The notes under the pieces are model-generated. The model was not told the DNA's origin and ran no database searches. It worked only from the letters and a program-made list of their open reading frames with translations. A program made the position numbers and the translations under genes. Shown here one piece after another: positions 3,384-37,003 of a DNA stretch of 64,000 nucleotides; within the stretch, counting starts at the first letter, position 1; each line of letters begins with the position of its first letter. The DNA comes from a bacterium (lineage in GTDB: Bacteria > Patescibacteriota > Minisyncoccia > JACQLN01). The stretch is taken from the NCBI GenBank assembly GCA_030697795.1, contig JAUYOV010000004.1, positions 77,886 to 141,885 of the forward strand, given 5' to 3'.

Positions 3384-3752
3384 TTAGTAGGAAGCTTGAA
3401 AAGATCTCTGGACAGAACCCCTGCTACCAGTGCTTTTTACCTTTGTGTCATTACAATTATCAGTATAAGGAGCGATACCATCATCGTCTATATGAACTTC
3501 GTAGCCAGCTCCATTACCCATATCTAAATTTGTAAAACTGGCAGGGCTAGGGTCGGGGCTTATTTTGCCCGAACAAACATAAAACATTTTTTCAGCGCCC
3601 GAATCCGCCGCAAAAATAGCCGAAATAGAATCATCAACCAATCTTGTTACGCCAATTTGGCTTGTAGTTAAAATTGTAACGCCAAGAGCCGTGGCCATTA
3701 TGGTGCCCAGTAACAACATGGTTATTAGTAAAGCTATGCCTTGATTGTTCAT
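3384..3752 (-). CDS. PilX-like minor pilin
   Basis: N-terminal hydrophobic segment MNNQGIALLITMLLLGTIMATALGV, PilX_N-like. Adjacent to other minor pilins. Confidence 0.45.
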   Translation of the reverse strand: MNNQGIALLITMLLLGTIMATALGVTILTTSQIGVTRLVDDSISAIFAADSGAEKMFYVCSGKISPDPSPASFTNLDMGNGAGYEVHIDDDGIAPYTDNCNDTKVKSTGSRGSVQRSFQASY

Positions 3753-4297
3753 TAGAGAGCTTCCAAATTACGCGGGGTAACAGTTGTTTGTAAATTTATT
3801 GAACTCGCTGTACTAACACCAACTTCTGTATTTTTTATAGAAATAATTATCGTAACCCTGGGCTGTTTAAAATCAGATGCGCCCTTGCCCTTTATAATAA
3901 AATCCAATTTCTCTATAGAGACTTCGCTTGAACTTAGGGCCAGAGAAGGGTTAACGCCCGTGCTTTCTTTTATTTGGCTACTATCAAGTTGGTAAGTCAC
4001 AAGACCCTTGGTTGGGTGATTAATAGCCAAAACGGAACTTGTGCCGTCGGCGGTTTGAATTGTGCTTTGCCTTATGGCCCGCGCCATTATTTCTAAAACA
4101 TAACGCGCGTTTTCTAAAACTTCCTGCTGATTGACATTTTTTCTTTGCGAGCCCACCGTGCTTACAAAAATAGAACTGACTATAGTTACTACCGTAGAAA
4201 AAACCGCCATAGCCACAATTAACTCTATGAGGGTGAAGCCCTCTTTAATTTCTAATTTCCAATTTCTAATTTCTAATTTTTTCTTATTTCCAATCAT
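3752..4297 (-). CDS. type IV minor pilin / pseudopilin (PilW-like)
   Basis: Class III signal motif GFTLIELIVAMAVF. The N-terminal leader is encoded by the ctaatttctaat repeat, so the true start is uncertain. Confidence 0.6.
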   Translation of the reverse strand: MIGNKKKLEIRNWKLEIKEGFTLIELIVAMAVFSTVVTIVSSIFVSTVGSQRKNVNQQEVLENARYVLEIMARAIRQSTIQTADGTSSVLAINHPTKGLVTYQLDSSQIKESTGVNPSLALSSSEVSIEKLDFIIKGKGASDFKQPRVTIIISIKNTEVGVSTASSINLQTTVTPRNLEAL

Positions 4298-4808
4298 ATA
4301 GATGCTCTATAACCATTGTACTTTGATTTAAATTTTTCTCTTTCCAGTCCACAATGCTTTTTATCTCCAAATAACTTACATTGTTTCCAGAAATGGTTTC
4401 CATTTTTGTTGTAATTTCTAAATGACTTTTAAAAGAAGTATTGCAAACATAGGCTGGCGACACCGCGTGTTTGTATGTACTACCGCTCCAGTTTAAACAT
4501 TTTCTAGCCTCACTACTATCAGAAGCATCAACCGATATACTATTGTAATCAACTATGCCCGACAATGTATCTGGGATATCGGTTAACCAGGGCGAGCCCT
4601 TTAAATAATTTGTATCCCTAATATTACGAACAACTTCAACACCTTCGGCGGCCAAATGAGCTGCCACCACGCGATCTTTTAAAACCGAGGCTTGCGCCGA
4701 ACTTTTGGAAATCAAAACCAAAGACCCCACAAAGCCAACAGAAATTACACCAATAGCCACAATAGCCTCGACCAGAGAAAAACCACTTGTTTTGAAATTC
4801 CTGTTCAT
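4284..4808 (-). CDS. type IV minor pilin / pseudopilin (PilV-like)
   Basis: MNRNFKTSGFSLVEAIVAIGV prepilin N-terminus. Confidence 0.6.
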   Translation of the reverse strand: MNRNFKTSGFSLVEAIVAIGVISVGFVGSLVLISKSSAQASVLKDRVVAAHLAAEGVEVVRNIRDTNYLKGSPWLTDIPDTLSGIVDYNSISVDASDSSEARKCLNWSGSTYKHAVSPAYVCNTSFKSHLEITTKMETISGNNVSYLEIKSIVDWKEKNLNQSTMVIEHLYDWK

Positions 4809-4938
4809 AAAAATGACAAATGACTAAGCTCAAATTTCTAATCAATGACTAATGTCCAATGACCAATAATAAAAATTTTAGAAATTTGACATTTAATAAT
4901 TTGAAATTGATTTGTCATTAGAAATTAGTAATTAGACA

Positions 4939-5478
4939 TTACTCTACGCTGACTGATCCTTTTGAATTTATATAAATATATTTGCAAAGCGTAATATCTT
5001 TTATACCGCAAAGAGTTATGGTGGCACTGGCCAAATCAAGTTCGCTTGTGTTTATGGCAGTTACAGGTAGGGGCGGAATAAAAAATATTTCTAAGGGGCT
5101 AGCCGGGCTAACCAAGCTTATTTGGCTAGCCGATAAAATAACGGTTGAAAGCAATATGTCGGAACCTGCATTATAAGCTTTATTTTCGTCACAATCGGCC
5201 ACCAAACGATATCTATCCGGCAAGGCTGTACTTAAAATTATACCAGAAGGCACAACTTTATTACCCAAGACCCCACAATCTTGTGCAATAGACGATAAAG
5301 CCATATTCTGAACTTTTCTTATTTCCTCGGCCAAACGCCTAGTCTCTAAGATAATTTTTCGCTGATCCGCTCCTTTATTGCCTCCGGTAATTACCATAGC
5401 CGACAAAAAACCAACTATACCTATAATTATAATTAACTCAATCAAGGTGAAACCGCTTGTTTTGAAATTCATATTCAT
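4939..5478 (-). CDS. type IV minor pilin / pseudopilin (FimT/GspH-like); tandem paralogue of 4284-4808
   Basis: MNMNFKTSGFTLIELIIIIG prepilin N-terminus. Its upstream 50 nt are duplicated at 4801-4850. Confidence 0.6.
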   Translation of the reverse strand: MNMNFKTSGFTLIELIIIIGIVGFLSAMVITGGNKGADQRKIILETRRLAEEIRKVQNMALSSIAQDCGVLGNKVVPSGIILSTALPDRYRLVADCDENKAYNAGSDILLSTVILSASQISLVSPASPLEIFFIPPLPVTAINTSELDLASATITLCGIKDITLCKYIYINSKGSVSVE

Positions 5479-5627
5479 AAAAATGACAAATGACTAAGCT
5501 CAAATTTCTAATCAAATCTAAATGACTAATGTCTAATGATTAAATTAAACTTGGCCTTTAGGCTTTGACATTTGACATTGATTAGTAATTAGAAATTAGG
5601 CATTTTTATACTTCACCTGCAACAAAA

Positions 5628-10174: not shown

Positions 10175-10290
10175 ATAATATGCTAATCAACAAATTATGC
10201 GAATGATACGAATATTTTATACGAACTTTAATAACCTGTATTCGTTATTTTATTTGTATAATTCGCATACATTCGTATATTGGTATATTA

Positions 10291-11361
10291 TTAACGCGAT
10301 AGTAAAGTAGAGAGTTCGGACGGATTTAGCGAATATATTTCCGCATTTTCTAGCGATATCTGCCCTTGTCTAACTAATTCTGAAAGCGATCTGTTTAAAG
10401 AAATCATACCTTTATCTGTGCTGGTTTCTATAACTAAATCTATTTGATGTATTTTATTTTCTCGAATTAAATTTCTAACGGCATAATTAGCTATCAAAAC
10501 TTCCACGGCCGGCACTAAACCGCCATCTACTTTAGGCACCAAGCGTTGAGAAACTATACCCAAAAGAGCACCAGCTAATTGCAATCTTATTTGAGCTTGT
10601 TGTTCCGGCGGAAAGCTATCTAAAATTCTATCTACAGTCTGCGAGGCTGAATTTGTATGCAACGTGGCAAAAACTAAATGGCCCGTTTCGGCGGCTGTAA
10701 CGGCTGTAGCAATAGTTTCTTTGTCTCTCATTTCGCCTAACATAACCACATCGGCATCCTGCCTAAAAATAGACCTTAACGCCCTGTTAAAACTTAAGGT
10801 ATCCATACCAACTTCGCGCTGTTCTATAATGGCGCGATCCGGCGTAAAAATATATTCTATCGGGTCTTCTATGGTAATTATATGATCCGAACGCTTATGA
10901 TTTATTTCATCTATTAAGGCGGCCAAGGTGGTTGACTTGCCATGCCCTGTGGGGCCAGAAACAATTACGAAGCCTTGGCTGGGCCTAGTAAAATCTTTTA
11001 AAACATGGGGCAAACCCAGTTCATCTATACTTTTTATTTTGTGGGGAATCAGTCTTAAAGCCGCAGAAGTATAACCTTTTTGAATATAAATATTGGTCCT
11101 GAATCTTATTTTATCTTTAAAGCTAAAGGCAAAATCTATTTCCTTAAATTTTTTAAAACGCAGTTTTTTTTCTTCATCCATCAAGGCTAAACACAACCCT
11201 TCGGAACGTTCGGGGGTTACAATCTGTTTTTGAGCCAGTTGAATCAGTTCGCCATCAACACGCAACACCGGCGGACGGCCGGGCGCAATATGCAAATCGG
11301 ACGCCCCTTGTTCGGCCGCCACAAGCATTAACTCTTCTATTTCGCGTTGATAGTTATCCAT
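10291..11361 (-). CDS. pilT: twitching-motility retraction ATPase PilT
   Basis: 356 aa GspE-family ATPase core with Walker A SGPTGHGKST and no N-terminal extension. Confidence 0.8.
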   Translation of the reverse strand: MDNYQREIEELMLVAAEQGASDLHIAPGRPPVLRVDGELIQLAQKQIVTPERSEGLCLALMDEEKKLRFKKFKEIDFAFSFKDKIRFRTNIYIQKGYTSAALRLIPHKIKSIDELGLPHVLKDFTRPSQGFVIVSGPTGHGKSTTLAALIDEINHKRSDHIITIEDPIEYIFTPDRAIIEQREVGMDTLSFNRALRSIFRQDADVVMLGEMRDKETIATAVTAAETGHLVFATLHTNSASQTVDRILDSFPPEQQAQIRLQLAGALLGIVSQRLVPKVDGGLVPAVEVLIANYAVRNLIRENKIHQIDLVIETSTDKGMISLNRSLSELVRQGQISLENAEIYSLNPSELSTLLSR

Positions 11362-11553
11362 GCCAATTTTGTCTGCGAGAGTAGCGAGCAGTTACAAAAT
11401 TGAGCACCCCGCCCTTTAGGTTAATAATATATAATGCGAGTAAATTATTTTTTATCAAACTTGATTTCATATCTAATTATCTAATTAGACTATTTTTATT
11501 CAAAGGGCGGGGTAAGGTTTCGCGACCAATCGCTCCGCTCTTGGGCCAAGCCC

Positions 11554-11922
11554 TTACTTTAAAATATCTTTAACCTTCGCCACTACTTCTGTAGGCGTAA
11601 AATGCGCCTTTATAATATAACTTTGCGCGCCTAGTTCCAAACCTCTTTTAACATCGCTGTCTAAACCTAAATTGGTAAGCATTACCACCGGAATTTTTGC
11701 CATAACAGGATCAGATTTTAATATTTTTAAAACTTCAAAACCATCTTTTTTTGGTAAAACAATATCTAAAAGAATAAGTTCGGGCATAATTTCTTTGGCT
11801 TTAGCCAGACCCATTTCTCCATCTTGAGCCACAACCACATCAAAACCAACCTCTTTAAATTTTGTAGAGTACATATCCAAAAGAAACGGGTCATCCTCCA
11901 CAAGTAATATCTTATGTGACAT
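11554..11922 (-). CDS. single-domain response regulator (CheY/PilH-like receiver)
   Basis: Receiver motifs LLVEDDP...LLDIVLPKKDG...K. Confidence 0.8.
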   Translation of the reverse strand: MSHKILLVEDDPFLLDMYSTKFKEVGFDVVVAQDGEMGLAKAKEIMPELILLDIVLPKKDGFEVLKILKSDPVMAKIPVVMLTNLGLDSDVKRGLELGAQSYIIKAHFTPTEVVAKVKDILK

Positions 11923-12080
11923 ATTATAATATCTAATTCCTAATTTCTAATAAAATGCCTAATATCTAAACCCTAATGACAAATCAATGCCAAACGATTG
12001 AATGTCAAAGAAATAATAATTTATAATTAGTCATTTGGATTTGATTGGACATTTGTTATTAGAAATTTGTCATTTCAAAT

Positions 12081-13820
12081 TTACTCTTCTACTACTCTCA
12101 AAACTTCTTCAATAGAAACCAGCCCCACCAACGCTTTCATTATACCATCCTGTTTCATGGTAATCATCCCCTGTCTTTTGGCCTCTTCAGCTATAATATA
12201 ATCCGATAGTTCCTTGCTTAAAATAACCTTTTCCATTTCTTTATTCATTTCGATAGCTTCAAAAATAGCCAGTCGGCCTTTGGTACCTTTATGACCACAA
12301 GTAGCGCAACCCTTAGCTTCAAAAATCTTATACGGTTTTTTTATTCCATATTTTTCGGCTTCGGCTTCGGGCACCTCGGCCAAGGTTTCGTTAACCACCT
12401 TAGAAAATTTATCTGGCAAAGCCATCGGCTTAGCGCAGTCTTTGCACATCTTTTTAACCAATCTTTGAGCCATGCCGGCCACCAGCGTAGATGGAATCAA
12501 AAATTTATCTACATCCATATCCACCAAGCGGGGTATTATACCCACCGCATTATTAGTGTGAAGCGTAGAAAAAACTAAGTGCCCCGTTAAAGCAGCATGC
12601 GTAGCTAAACCGGCAGTTTCTTTATCGCGAATTTCGCCTACCATAATAATATTAGGATCTTGCCTTAAGATGCTCCTTAAGCCCGAAGCAAAAGTGTACT
12701 CAATTTCGGGTTTGATTTGAGATTGGTTAACGCCCGGAATATAATATTCCACCGGATCTTCCAAAGTAATAATATTGACGCCTTCTTTATTTACATAATT
12801 AAGCGTGGTGTAAAGCGTAGTAGATTTGCCAGAACCAGTGGGACCCGTAATTAAAATAACGCCGAAGGGGTTTTTAATAGCTCTTTCATAAATTTCTAAA
12901 CTTTTTCCAATCAAACCTAAATCCGTAAAATTTCCTACACCCGCGTTGGGATCTAAAATTCTTAGAGCAATTTTTTCACCAAAAGTCGTGGGCAAAGAAG
13001 AAACCCTAAAATCCACATTGTTGGCGCCAACCTTAGTGCGAAACCTACCATCCTGGGGAATTCTAGTTTCATCTATTTTAAGGTTAGATAAAACTTTTAT
13101 ACGGCTGATTATGGCGTTATGCGTGCTTTTGGGCAGTGTCATTGATGAATGCAAAGCGCCATCTAAACGAAAACGAATTCTCGTTTCATTTTCTAGCGGT
13201 TCTATGTGAATATCGGAAGCCTTGCCTTCGACTGCATACCGAAGCATAACCGCCACAACTTTAGTTATGGGAGCTTCGGCGGCTAGCTGTTCAACTTTTT
13301 CGCCGGTAAATTCCTCTGTACCAAGTTTTTCGACATCTTCGATTAATTCTTGATTTAACTGTTCAAGGGCGCTGGTAACCTCTTTACCAAGATTTCTATA
13401 CTTTTGAGAAACATTGGCAAAATCAGAATCTAAAATAACATAAACATTGGGCATGAAACCATTTTTTACAGAAATAAACTTTAAAGCTTCTCTGCCCTCA
13501 ACATCATCCGGATCAACCATGCCCACTATTAAATTGTTGCCATTTTTCTCTACTGGTAAAAACTTATAATGCAAAACGGCGTCTTCGGGCAAAAGCTGTA
13601 GAACCTCTGGCGGAATATTTTTGCCGGTAAGTTCAAGCAGGGGTAAACCCATAATAGCGCTTTTGGCTTTAAGAAATTCCGCTGGTTTTATTAAAAAATT
13701 CTTTAATAAAATTTGCTCTAATTCCGCCACATTGCTAAGCGCAGATAGAGCCAGCGATTTAGCCTGGCTCTCTTTAATTAAATTATTGTCTATAAGATAT
13801 GCAATTAATTTTTCTAGCAT
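12081..13820 (-). CDS. pilB: type IV pilus assembly ATPase PilB (GspE family)
   Basis: 579 aa; N-terminal GspII_E domains; Walker A GPTGSGKST; Cys tetrad. Confidence 0.9.
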   Translation of the reverse strand: MLEKLIAYLIDNNLIKESQAKSLALSALSNVAELEQILLKNFLIKPAEFLKAKSAIMGLPLLELTGKNIPPEVLQLLPEDAVLHYKFLPVEKNGNNLIVGMVDPDDVEGREALKFISVKNGFMPNVYVILDSDFANVSQKYRNLGKEVTSALEQLNQELIEDVEKLGTEEFTGEKVEQLAAEAPITKVVAVMLRYAVEGKASDIHIEPLENETRIRFRLDGALHSSMTLPKSTHNAIISRIKVLSNLKIDETRIPQDGRFRTKVGANNVDFRVSSLPTTFGEKIALRILDPNAGVGNFTDLGLIGKSLEIYERAIKNPFGVILITGPTGSGKSTTLYTTLNYVNKEGVNIITLEDPVEYYIPGVNQSQIKPEIEYTFASGLRSILRQDPNIIMVGEIRDKETAGLATHAALTGHLVFSTLHTNNAVGIIPRLVDMDVDKFLIPSTLVAGMAQRLVKKMCKDCAKPMALPDKFSKVVNETLAEVPEAEAEKYGIKKPYKIFEAKGCATCGHKGTKGRLAIFEAIEMNKEMEKVILSKELSDYIIAEEAKRQGMITMKQDGIMKALVGLVSIEEVLRVVEE

Positions 13821-14038
13821 GTGCCTTTTTTGTCTAAATTTTAGAGCTTCTTTGTAGCGAATAAAATTTAGCTACAAAAGAGAGCACCCCGCCCTTTATA
13901 TCAACTATAATTGTTTTGATTAAATTTATTTTCACTAGATTTGATTTCGTGCTTATTTTTTATATATTTTGCTTAAAGGGCGGGGTTAGGTTTGGCAACC
14001 AAGAAACGTTCACTTCGTTCCGTTTCTTGGGCCAAGCC

Positions 14039-14341
14039 CTAATCTGAGAATGGATTACTTTTTCCTGTTGTTTGCGTTTCTATGGGCACACCTGGGGGTA
14101 TTTGCAAACTTTTAAATCTTTCATCTTCTAAAATTTTAACTTTTAAATCCGAAACCTGATCAGCCACTGTGGCGCTGGGAGTTCCAGCTACAACTGCGCT
14201 TTGTTCTGGTTGAACTGGCGGAGGCGAGCTACTGCCAAAAAAACCAAAGTAAAGAATCCCAAAACTAACCAAAACCAAAACTCCAAAAACTGCTAATAAA
14301 ATCCTTTTCTTTTTTATTTCTTTTGTGACAATTACAGCCAA
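14039..14341 (-). CDS. small membrane-anchored hypothetical protein (possible PilP analogue); TTG start abuts a repeat
   Basis: One N-terminal TM segment, then a Pro/Ser-rich linker. Lies between pilO and pilB. No SD sequence. Confidence 0.3.
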   Translation of the reverse strand: MAVIVTKEIKKKRILLAVFGVLVLVSFGILYFGFFGSSSPPPVQPEQSAVVAGTPSATVADQVSDLKVKILEDERFKSLQIPPGVPIETQTTGKSNPFSD

Positions 14342-14414
14342 GTTAGCTTTTAGCTTTTAGCTTTTAGCTTTCTAGAAAGATTTTCTAAAAAGCTAAGGGG
14401 CTAGGAAGCTAATA

Positions 14415-15577: not shown

Positions 15578-15664
15578 ACTTTTCGCTAATATACGAATTG
15601 ATTCGAATATACTAATAAGAATTCATTCGCTATATTAGTGTTGATTAGTTATATTGGCGAAAAC

Positions 15665-17593: not shown

Positions 17594-18052
17594 TTAGGGC
17601 TCAGTATACACACCTTGGGGATAGCGCTCTGACTGAAAAAAAGGAACCGGCATCTCACACTCTTCTGCATGAACTAATTGCGCCGCTCGAGTAATGAGGG
17701 TAGAAGCAATCAATGCCACTGGACGGTGAAGATAAATAAATCCCCTTCGGAATTCCACTTTCATCATATCAAACATTCTACAACCAGATCCATAGCCCCA
17801 TACACCAGTGTTCTGGGGACCAGCCGTTATACATAATTCCCAACTATTGAGCCCCTCTTGACCTAAAGGAGCAGAACATAAAATAAAATGCTTTAGTTCT
17901 TTTTCATCGCAAACAGCTATAATGCCTAACTCTTCTGCTAGTTCCCGAACCCGATAATGTCCATAAAAAATACGCTCGTATTCCTGTCCCACTCCTTGTT
18001 TTTCGGAAAACTCCTCAAAAAGCATCTTGGGAATATCTGTTATAGAATACAC
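17594..18052 (-). CDS. orphan hypothetical protein, cassette A (GTG start, AAGGAG RBS)
   Basis: Higher GC than its flanks. Its leader and hairpin are shared with ORF 18360-18569. Confidence 0.4.
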   Translation of the reverse strand: MYSITDIPKMLFEEFSEKQGVGQEYERIFYGHYRVRELAEELGIIAVCDEKELKHFILCSAPLGQEGLNSWELCITAGPQNTGVWGYGSGCRMFDMMKVEFRRGFIYLHRPVALIASTLITRAAQLVHAEECEMPVPFFQSERYPQGVYTEP

Positions 18053-20909: not shown

Positions 20910-21027
20910 AAATATACTAATCTACAAATTGATACGAATTATACTAATGATTTAACGAATTCGTTTTATATTCGCATTATTCGTTAAGCTTATTCGTAGC
21001 ATTCGCATAGATTCGTATATTGGTATA

Positions 21028-21495: not shown

Positions 21496-21569
21496 GAACT
21501 AGCTTTTAGCTTTTTAGCTACTAGCTTCTTAGATTTTTCTAAAAAGCTAAAACCTAGAAAGCTAATTTC

Positions 21570-36463: not shown

Positions 36464-37003
36464 TCAAGAAAACACTCGATCGTATAGATCTAGAATTGAA
36501 GGAAAAACTTTCTCGCTGACTAACCGCTCTCGATCAAAGGCGAAAAGGCCAGTATTTTCTTTGTATTCTCTATCCTCAAGATTTGCATAGACAGAGCCCA
36601 ATTCGGCCACTGTGAGCTCGATTGTAAATGTGTAACCGAGCATGTGACAACCAATCTCCTGTGGCAATTGAGCTCGATCTTTCCAGCGATAGTCAAAAAC
36701 CGCTATCAATTCGAAACGATCTTGAGGAAGCTCTAACTTGGTTTCCCGCTGGAAATTTCTCGCCACAGCTTCTTCCTTGGTCTCATGCGGCATCATACCA
36801 CCACCAATCCACCACCAGCCAGTCATGGGTATTGATACTCGCTTTGCAAGATAGATTACTTTCCGATTAGTATCAATTGGGACAACATCTGTACATGCTG
36901 GGACGAAACATTGAAGCCCCCTGCTATACTCATCGTCCGTAAGACGTACCGAAGGAATAGGCTGATACCCATCCTCTGTATAACTGCCAACCAGAATATC
37001 CAA
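36464..37003 (-). CDS. Nudix-like hydrolase (GDP-mannose mannosyl hydrolase candidate); elevated GC; TTG start with GGAGG RBS
   Basis: Partial Nudix box IGGGMMPHETKEEAVARNFQRETKLEL. Position next to gmd, as wcaH is in E. coli. Confidence 0.45.
   Translation of the reverse strand: MDILVGSYTEDGYQPIPSVRLTDDEYSRGLQCFVPACTDVVPIDTNRKVIYLAKRVSIPMTGWWWIGGGMMPHETKEEAVARNFQRETKLELPQDRFELIAVFDYRWKDRAQLPQEIGCHMLGYTFTIELTVAELGSVYANLEDREYKENTGLFAFDRERLVSEKVFPSILDLYDRVFS

Follow-up and report, generated by a model that had tools for sequence, protein, structure and literature searches.

Two copies of a GC-rich inverted repeat in a pil operon raise the question of whether they form a dedicated device for pilus control or belong to something more general. 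The copies lie in a 64 kb stretch of the patescibacterial contig JAUYOV010000004.1 (assembly GCA_030697795.1, positions 77,886 to 141,885), referred to here as the window. One sits directly before pilT and the other directly before pilB, and the gene for a receiver-only response regulator lies between them. A sequence-only reading had called this gene context and the position of both copies correctly, and had proposed that the regulator could coordinate pilus extension against retraction. Comparison across genomes and metagenomes points elsewhere. The two copies probably represent a family of non-coding intergenic repeats, each with three hairpins, that is dispersed in Patescibacteria (candidate phyla radiation, CPR); it is comparable to BOX, ERIC or Correia repeats, with rapid turnover and no pilus specificity. 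This family is termed D-type below. Coordinates refer to the plus strand of the window, and both elements are read on the minus strand.

Gene order on the minus strand is pilM, a pilN-like gene, pilO, an open reading frame (ORF) of 100 aa, copy 2 (13821-14041), pilB, the response regulator, copy 1 (11362-11556), pilT, pilC, and pilins. By PilT homology, the organism falls in Parcubacteria/Patescibacteria. Each copy occupies the entire gap between two genes, starting at the stop codon of the first and reaching the start codon of the second. The arms stand out clearly from background. With up to two mismatches allowed, the 14-mer CACCCCGCCCTTTA has four matches in the window against 0.41 expected, and none of 100 shuffles reaches four. 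These matches are the two arms of each copy, located on the plus strand at 11405-11418 and 13885-13898, with inverted partners at 11501-11514 and 13974-13987. The arms themselves span 11407-11417 and 11502-11512 in copy 1 (84 nt between them), and 13887-13897 and 13975-13985 in copy 2 (77 nt between them); a flanking A-T pair lengthens each arm stem. The copies are homologous, with a mean column identity of 75% in an end-to-end alignment of the minus strand. The spacers, first described as unrelated, in fact align in the same orientation and have blocks such as GAAATCAA and AAAATAAATTTA in common. Minus-strand folds of both copies beat shuffled sequence (z = -3.7 for copy 1 and -6.3 for copy 2).

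The element is composed of three adjacent hairpins, namely a 5' domain, a central hairpin (P2), and a 3' domain. P2 is closed by CCCCGCCCTTT/AAAGGGCGGGG around an AT-rich interior of 77-84 nt. In copy 1, the 5' domain (11514-11556) is a bent hairpin made of UAAGG/CCUUA, UUGGC/GCGAA, and an inner hairpin, and it opens with the TAA stop of the response-regulator gene (11554-11556). P2 occupies 11406-11513, with a GC-rich closing stem of 12-13 bp (arms 11502-11513 and 11406-11417) around an 84-nt interior. The 3' domain (11362-11405) has the outer stem UGC(U)CAAUUUUGU/ACAAAAUUGGCA and an inner hairpin with loop UCGCUACUCUC, and the A of the pilT ATG (11359-11361) is the last paired base of that outer stem. 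In copy 2, the 5' domain (13987-14041) pairs UUAGG with CCUAA, carries an inner 10-bp hairpin (CCAAGAAACG...CGUUUCUUGG), and opens with the TAG stop of the 100-aa ORF (14039-14041). Its P2 (13886-13986) has arms at 13975-13986 and 13886-13897 and a 77-nt AT-rich interior. The 3' domain (13821-13885) forms two sub-hairpins, including GUAGC...GCUAC, and is directly followed by the pilB ATG (13818-13820). TAAGG/CCTTA in copy 1 and TTAGG/CCTAA in copy 2 represent a compensatory change within the 5' domain. The sequence-only reading had captured the 5' domain and P2 and missed the 3' domain, so that the element measures about 200 nt rather than about 155 nt. The conserved 3' tail with a short hairpin that it described is real, but constitutes a complete 5' hairpin domain beginning at the upstream stop codon.

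Covariance models of the 5' domain (R1) and the 3' domain (R2) were built from hand-checked flank alignments. Over the 64 kb window, they detect copies 1 and 2 only. R1 scores 39.9 bits (E = 1.5e-09) for copy 1 and 54.7 bits (E = 3e-14) for copy 2, whereas R2 scores 59.9 bits (E = 7e-11) and 53.1 bits (E = 2.5e-09), respectively. A covariance search of this kind, suggested at the outset, also recovers further copies in relatives. The reverse complement of the copy 2 3' domain matches R1 at 31 bits, which indicates dyad symmetry at the family level.

How far the element extends beyond this locus was assessed with two sequence patterns. The arm pattern CCCCGCCCTTT-N(65-95)-AAAGGGCGGGG returned at least 120 loci across 185,579 species genomes, against about one expected by chance (a rough estimate that takes composition as uniform). 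Treating these matches as one family was abandoned, as they are heterogeneous and mix unrelated kinds. Among those listed, 15 Patescibacteria copies in 14 genomes have the flanks of the window copies on both sides, in the form ...AAACCTTA, arms, and TGCTCAATTTT...GGCATG. R1 and R2 together identify further copies with entirely different P2 arms in other Patescibacteria loci, including at least four within 8 kb in one genome (L029). A 3'-domain pattern, GGGTGCTCAAT-N(25-55)-ATTGGCATG, returned at least 120 loci in metagenomes. Groundwater is the source of many of these contigs, and samples of the Hainich aquifer (contigs named Hain-H41/H43/H51/H52) contributed many copies. Permuted arm patterns had 1, 0, and 0 matches in viral contigs, a collection too small to inform.

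The central hairpin varies among these copies. A P2 partner arm was located in 82 of the 121 metagenome matches listed, and P2 length is bimodal (28-53 nt or about 94-113 nt). The stem is about 12 bp long and begins CCCCG/CGGGG, and the CCCCGCCCTTT arms are one version among many; this same version also closes a short P2 of 36 nt (L245). The P2 interior is not AU-rich in every copy, and the domain modules are combined differently among copies. Before pilB in another genome (L046, 4956-5361), D-type units stand in tandem, the first with a 105-nt central hairpin (CCGAGCACTCAACTTG...) and the second with the arm type of the window.

A typical D-type copy is about 200 nt long, fills the gap between two co-directional genes, and has a 3' outer stem that finishes at position -1 of the next ATG. 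In 113 of the 121 metagenome 3'-domain matches listed, this ATG is the start of an ORF that has 50 codons or more, or that runs off the contig. Where the canonical 5' motif (UAAGG paired with CCUUA) is present, it supplies an in-frame upstream stop, TAA or TAG, in 33 of 40 metagenome copies; the stop-to-start length in this set has a median of 206 nt. The copies retrieved with the strand-symmetric arm pattern are all co-oriented with neighbouring ORFs and adjoin a start codon. The upstream gene apparently lies on the other strand in about 10 of 93 copies.

Such geometry invites a translational explanation. The helices may bring the upstream stop and the next AUG close together, so that ribosomes could re-initiate beyond the 200-nt insert, much as they do in shunting or at split ribosome-binding sites. 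Another option is that an AU-rich P2 loop provides a standby site, given how seldom Shine-Dalgarno sites are used in this organism. The stop-to-start span in 33 of 40 canonical copies fits this proposal, as does the AUG, which in essentially every copy directly follows the outer 3' stem. The hosts include ribosomal-protein and pilus operons, which usually depend on coupling, and Shine-Dalgarno motifs are near-absent before the roughly 58 minus-strand ORFs of the window (clear GGAG-type motifs occur only at the starts of 36464-37003 and 17594-18052). Nevertheless, the argument is purely geometric. Some copies have an upstream ORF that terminates within the element, or an upstream gene on the opposite strand. 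An AU-rich P2 interior is not universal, and it is missing from copies with a short P2. We regard coupling or start-site presentation as an improbable role.

Selection on the fold is evident from the family alignments. In the 5' domain, 94.4% of cells are paired and 15 of 21 pairs show compensatory double changes, against 32-61% paired in controls with slid partners. In the 3' domain, 88.6% of cells are paired and double changes occur at 11 of 16 pairs. For P2, pairing reaches 92% and 12 of 15 pairs covary, although the first ten P2 pairs in this count were pre-selected for complementarity, which tells somewhat against our interpretation. All three stems covary strongly across relatives, and the structure is under selection, as the sequence-only reading had anticipated. 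Its proposal of a long-range stem formed by the GC-rich arms in the transcribed strand is also supported, and pairing is indeed conserved without conservation of the interior.

The arms themselves exist in 68 distinct versions among the metagenome matches listed, mostly beginning CCCCG or CCCAG. Their sequence varies and their complementarity is kept, which implies a nucleic-acid hairpin and argues against a protein operator or recombinase site. A pair of protein operators, one of the roles first suggested, was therefore rejected, also because the element is absent from most orthologous junctions. Two other structural ideas were set aside. One was that the 5' and 3' domains pair, or kiss, over a long range, but such duplexes are no stronger within an element (-19.5 kcal/mol) than across elements (-19.1 kcal/mol; p = 0.31); complementary 5' and 3' loops, GAGCGAAGCGA and UCGCUUCGCUC, do occur in some copies. 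A tRNA-like reading of the three hairpins has topology alone in its favour.

The genes that follow the element are diverse. In genomes, D-type copies lie at the junctions rpsC-to-rplP (twice), rpsF-to-ssb, ssb-to-rpsR, smc-to-rpsP, rpsA-to-rpsO, prfB-to-ftsE, tsf-to-unknown, and pilB-to-pilT. Among the metagenome matches listed, the downstream genes encode ribosomal proteins S3 (5 copies), S18 (4), L2, S8, S11, S19, L6, L24, and S5, as well as seryl- and histidyl-tRNA synthetases, MraZ, NusB, Fpg, LigA, an elongation factor (EF), SMC, NusA, SecE, and PilC. Most copies precede housekeeping genes. The family belongs to compact housekeeping operons in general, and pilus operons are one host among others. 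Between rpsC and rplP, the element occurs in two different CPR classes (L036, 6940-7165; L078, 4260-4462). The S3 frame in both continues about 15 codons into the 5' domain, so that the C-terminus of S3 is repeat-encoded there.

Comparison of pil loci shows how unstable the two window sites are. The relatives considered have PilT proteins 94, 92, 91, 90, 85, 85, 83, and 81% identical to that of the window. Within this range (81-94%), the regulator-to-pilT junction carries a D-type element only in the window and in L251 (PilT 81%), where the copy has a short, different P2. No such element is found at that junction in L001, L246, L003, L247/L248, L249, L004, or L250. The spacer there measures 37-86 nt in all relatives but the most distant. 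It either lacks any recognisable feature or contains a different hairpin, GCGACAC...GTGTCGC, with TTTTT directly after it. The junction between the small ORF and pilB holds a D-type element in the window only, among the relatives compared. In the closest relative (L001), the small ORF and pilB overlap as TAATG with no spacer, and the other relatives have unrelated palindromes at this point. Absence from most orthologous junctions excludes a conserved pilT/pilB leader and indicates that sites turn over quickly. Absence of conservation in relatives had been named in advance as a result that would refute the proposal; the element is indeed missing from these junctions in most of them, and L251 carries a regulator-to-pilT copy. 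Between pilT and pilC, two relatives carry a PD-(D/E)XK (PDDEXK_3) gene (L004, 4937-5332; L250, 5763-6158) that is absent from the window.

Dedicated cis-regulation of pilT and pilB, through operators, a promoter-embedding structure or an invertible promoter, with the regulator coordinating extension and retraction, consequently has very little to recommend it. It can draw on the position of the window's only two copies, one before each ATPase gene, and on copies before pilB or pilT in L030 and L046 and at the regulator-to-pilT junction of L251. On the other side, both junctions lack the element in most close relatives and most copies precede unrelated housekeeping genes. The arms retain pairing and not sequence, which speaks against an operator or recombinase site, and the regulator has a receiver domain only, without a DNA-binding domain. 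Promoter-like matches in the interiors are at background level: 14 sigma-70-like matches were counted against 8.3 +/- 3.2 expected, and the best interior matches score 9 of 12, so that a promoter cassette was discarded. An inverton was discarded as well, because inverted repeats are present but promoters are at background, the interiors share one orientation with no inverted variant seen, and the arms are not conserved in sequence, although no search for a recombinase was made. On these comparative data, a pilus-specific role appears largely refuted, and the story of a dedicated extension-versus-retraction switch can be dropped for this window.

Mobility or recombination is suggested by several observations. 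Three genomes share one 33-nt hairpin, CCCAAGAAACGGAACGAAGTGAACGTTTCTTGG, without any difference, at junctions that are not orthologous: in window copy 2 before pilB, between pilB and the regulator in L004, and after a cobalamin adenosyltransferase-like gene in L083. D-type copies also occupy other pil junctions, including pilB-to-regulator (L004 and L251), the pilin cluster-to-ligA junction (L001), and several in L251.

The element could be purely selfish DNA of the MITE (miniature inverted-repeat transposable element), REPIN, or PATE kind, whose hairpins are recognised in single-stranded DNA by a transposase, for example a Y1/HUH enzyme or an insertion sequence (IS) that targets hairpin loops. 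The transcript fold would then be merely tolerated, and sense orientation would be a by-product of replication-coupled insertion. Many dispersed, short, non-coding copies at unrelated loci are typical of MITEs and are seen here, together with fast gain and loss between close relatives and identical modules at non-orthologous sites. The dyad symmetry revealed by R1 matching the reverse complement of 3' domains fits as well, as do the GTAG...CTAC inner palindromes of several 3' domains, including that of copy 2 (GTAGC...GCTAC in copy 2 and several relatives; GTAAC in copy 1). Hairpins of about 100 nt closed by CCCCG, found in the centre of an 'ACGAAT' palindrome and at the tips of structured RNAs, resemble hairpin-loop insertion. 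The sequence-only reading had held that scattered copies with target-site duplications would reveal a MITE; scattered copies exist, but no direct repeat flanks either window copy. The element's two ends, GGGCTT... and ...TTGGC, do not form an inverted repeat, and no transposase was identified, none having been searched for systematically. Random insertion predicts neither the start-codon abutment of nearly every copy nor the usual stop in the 5' motif, and no complementarity specific to the element links the 5' and 3' domains (p = 0.31). Taken together, a purely selfish origin is a minority possibility.

The intergenic-repeat interpretation that we favour must also accommodate several points that weigh against it. 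RNA-level function, co-transcription, and any cleavage are inferences, as is any effect on mRNA processing or translation start. Hairpins that served a transposition step as single-stranded DNA would also be expected to covary. A link to the direction of replication could account for part of the sense orientation, given that nearly all window genes share a strand; GC skew is negative throughout. Both window copies fall in the pil operon, with none elsewhere in the 64 kb. The regulator-to-pilT site, filled in L251 too, may be old or a hot spot. Since pil loci host copies in several relatives, some local preference for them is possible, and the sampling of pil loci is biased by the way they were fetched.

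Under the favoured interpretation, a D-type element would be co-transcribed with its operon, always in the sense direction, and would fold locally into three adjacent helices. With its helices all local, the 200-nt insert is proposed to act as a compact, self-contained spacer. Gain and loss between junctions would proceed by transposition or by recombination between copies, and the fold would be retained because the transcript can only tolerate a repeat that does no harm or brings a slight benefit. Elements of this kind may punctuate polycistronic mRNA, with the long P2 duplex as a potential target for a double-strand-specific RNase. The flanking hairpins could protect the new 3' and 5' ends. 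The AUG would be left at the base of a helix, in an organism with little use of Shine-Dalgarno sites. The most that the two window copies would do is to separate pilB and the regulator, in mRNA stability or translation, from pilMNO and from pilT-pilC. Such uncoupling would be generic and would not amount to a dedicated switch between extension and retraction.

A further and rather unlikely scheme links two possibilities. D-type elements may be functional operon punctuation in CPR bacteria that seldom use Shine-Dalgarno sites, and the CCCCG hairpin of about 100 nt may be a separate mobile module that colonises hairpin tips. Punctuation would involve processing or re-initiation across a folded stop-to-start cassette, a bacterial analogue of the structured punctuation of mitochondrial transcripts. 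The hosts of the mobile module would be helix 44 of 16S rRNA, RNase P RNA, the SAM-I riboswitch, tRNA-like scaffolds, and the centres of palindromic repeats, in several phyla.

Hairpins of about 95-103 nt with the P2 arms of the window do occur at the tips of structured RNAs. One lies near the tip of helix 44 in a 16S rRNA (L071, 3792-3894), and another forms an 84-nt insert in P3 of a SAM-I riboswitch (L006, 6968-7066). Three homologous hairpins reside in the P3, P12, and P18 regions of a single planctomycete RNase P RNA (L053, 2322-2417, 2516-2612, and 2789-2883). The native stems there are already rich in CCCC/GGGG. In L251, a palindromic repeat of the 'ACGAAT/ATTCGT' type before pilB (3437-3620) has at its centre a hairpin of about 107 nt that is closed by CCCCG (CCCCGTTACTCTC...GAGAGTAACGGGG). 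Its presence inside a different palindrome suggests that the central hairpin is a separable module.

Some Patescibacteria tRNA-like genes have their anticodon arm replaced by a CCCCGCCCTTT...AAAGGGCGGGG stem. Inside this stem lies a second tRNA, complete and in the same orientation, whose isoacceptor family (Val, Thr, or Pro) matches that of the outer gene, as at L023 3760-3925, L050 7508-7670, L054 3355-3455, L095 1103-1206, L109 3630-3731, and L116 5620-5780. The outer gene mostly has good acceptor, D, and T arms, without a usable anticodon loop, and both ARAGORN and Rfam call the inner tRNA only.

The remaining arm matches are of other kinds. In a clade of cobalamin riboswitches (Desulfobacterales, Nitrospirota, and others), the same 11-mers form the riboswitch's own stem, which encloses the conserved GCCACUG...GGGAAGG core (L012, L017, L033, L034, L052, L066, L074, L076, L079, L081, L087, L089, L112-L114, and others); these matches are coincidental and not inserts. 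Collinsella genomes contain a conserved, near-perfect palindrome of 115 nt with these arms (L010, L019, L035, L059, L060, L065, L088, L107, L108, L118, L120, and L121). Omnitrophota carry several copies per genome, with the same arms within longer inverted flanks (GAATTnA...TTCAATTCG; L005, L037, L038, L042, L047, L064, L082, L086, L100, and L106). GC-rich actinobacterial hairpins are also among the matches.

The window and its relatives harbor additional repeats. A second intergenic hairpin family, with ATTCGTA/TACGAAT motifs, lies directly before the starts of pilC, the pilN-like gene, and fusA (window 10175-10290, 15578-15664, and 20910-21027; L001 9915-10000; L003 1595-1678), and also at pilT and pilB junctions of relatives. 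A third type, made of AGCTAAAAGCT / GCTAGGAAGC units, precedes the 100-aa ORF and rpsG (window 14342-14414 and 21496-21569; L004 1415-1495) and is partly tandem, with TTAGCTTTTAGCTT twice at 14343-14370. Two unannotated ORFs on the minus strand, 4284-4808 (174 aa) and 4939-5478 (179 aa), have an identical 30-nt sequence, gaaatttgagcttagtcatttgtcattttt, directly before their starts (4809-4838 and 5479-5508).

None of the catalogued elements searched matches the D-type repeat. At the gathering threshold, Rfam 15 finds a tRNA as its sole match in the window, and a scan of 11300-14400 at E <= 10 returns nothing but weak, unrelated matches. At the D-type positions of 40 loci, Rfam 15 gives no match. 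ARAGORN detects no tRNA or tmRNA at the element. No description of such an element was found in the literature searched on tRNA, rRNA, or intergenic insertions in CPR bacteria. An intrinsic terminator was rejected, as only two marginal matches (stem of 5-6 bp, GGGCGGGG and GCTC) stand against 3.0 in shuffles, and P2 has a 77-84 nt loop without an adjacent U tract. An integron attC site (core sites RYYYAAC ... GTTRRRY) was rejected as well, since the GTTAGGT of copy 2 reads GTAAGGT at the same place in copy 1 and the flanks are core operon genes.

The D-type family is apparently a structured repeat that has not been described before, is widespread, and covaries strongly. Compact housekeeping operons, such as those that host it in metagenome-assembled Patescibacteria genomes, would not be expected to contain 200-nt spacers. 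If the fold acts on RNA, the family bears on polycistronic mRNA processing and on translation in small, largely Shine-Dalgarno-free genomes. If it is purely selfish, it represents a mobile element that is strictly sense-oriented and placed between stop and start with unusual precision. For annotation, the family explains odd long spacers and C-terminal extensions of S3.

Known systems offer partial parallels. Intervening sequences (IVS) of rRNA are helix-closed, non-conserved inserts at hairpin tips that are removed by RNase III. The hairpins with window P2 arms at the tips of 16S helix 44, SAM-I P3, and RNase P P3/P12/P18 recall them, whereas the window copies lie in mRNA spacers and not in rRNA. 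Repetitive extragenic palindromes (REPs) are 20-40 nt long, and their definition combines a tag (GTAG or CGTC) with a RAYT gene; IS1397 exemplifies an IS that inserts into the loops of palindromic units. Like REP, BIME, and REPIN sequences, D-type elements are extragenic palindromes with pairing-conserved stems, and some of their 3' domains contain GTAG...CTAC; the CCCCG-closed hairpin of about 100 nt, nested in the centre of other palindromes, is reminiscent of insertion into palindromic-unit loops. A published account of REP superfamilies tagged with GTAG or CGTC is available (PMC3733652). Unlike REPs, D-type elements are about 200 nt long and anchored to start codons, and the tag is absent from copy 1.

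ERIC/IRU and the Correia (NEMIS) elements of Neisseria are imperfect palindromes of about 100-150 nt that are transcribed from intergenic regions, form long RNA hairpins, and are patchy between close relatives. Correia hairpins are substrates of RNase III. The ends of Correia elements form promoters and carry terminal inverted repeats of 26 bp; the elements also have an IHF site, duplicate a TA target, and occur in both orientations. D-type copies likewise occupy intergenic regions of operons and are patchy between close relatives. However, the 26-bp terminal repeats, TA duplication, IHF site, promoter ends, and two orientations of Correia elements are not found in them, and they fold into three separate hairpins rather than one.

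A parallel in architecture is pneumococcal BOX. BOX elements are non-coding, multi-copy intergenic repeats of the form boxA-boxB(n)-boxC that are co-transcribed with their neighbours and form stable stem-loops. Their modules measure about 45-60 nt, the middle module is variable, and the outer modules are partly complementary. D-type elements are similarly non-coding, multi-copy, and intergenic, with three modules, a variable middle, and stem-loops. No sequence relationship is expected, the host phylum differs, and the middle of a D-type element is one long hairpin with covarying arms, in contrast to tandem boxB units. D-type copies also differ from BOX in being strictly sense-oriented and in spanning exactly from stop to start. 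Structured intergenic repeats are of a familiar kind, and what is unusual in the D-type family is its strict orientation, its stop-to-start placement, and its three domains with a covarying central hairpin.

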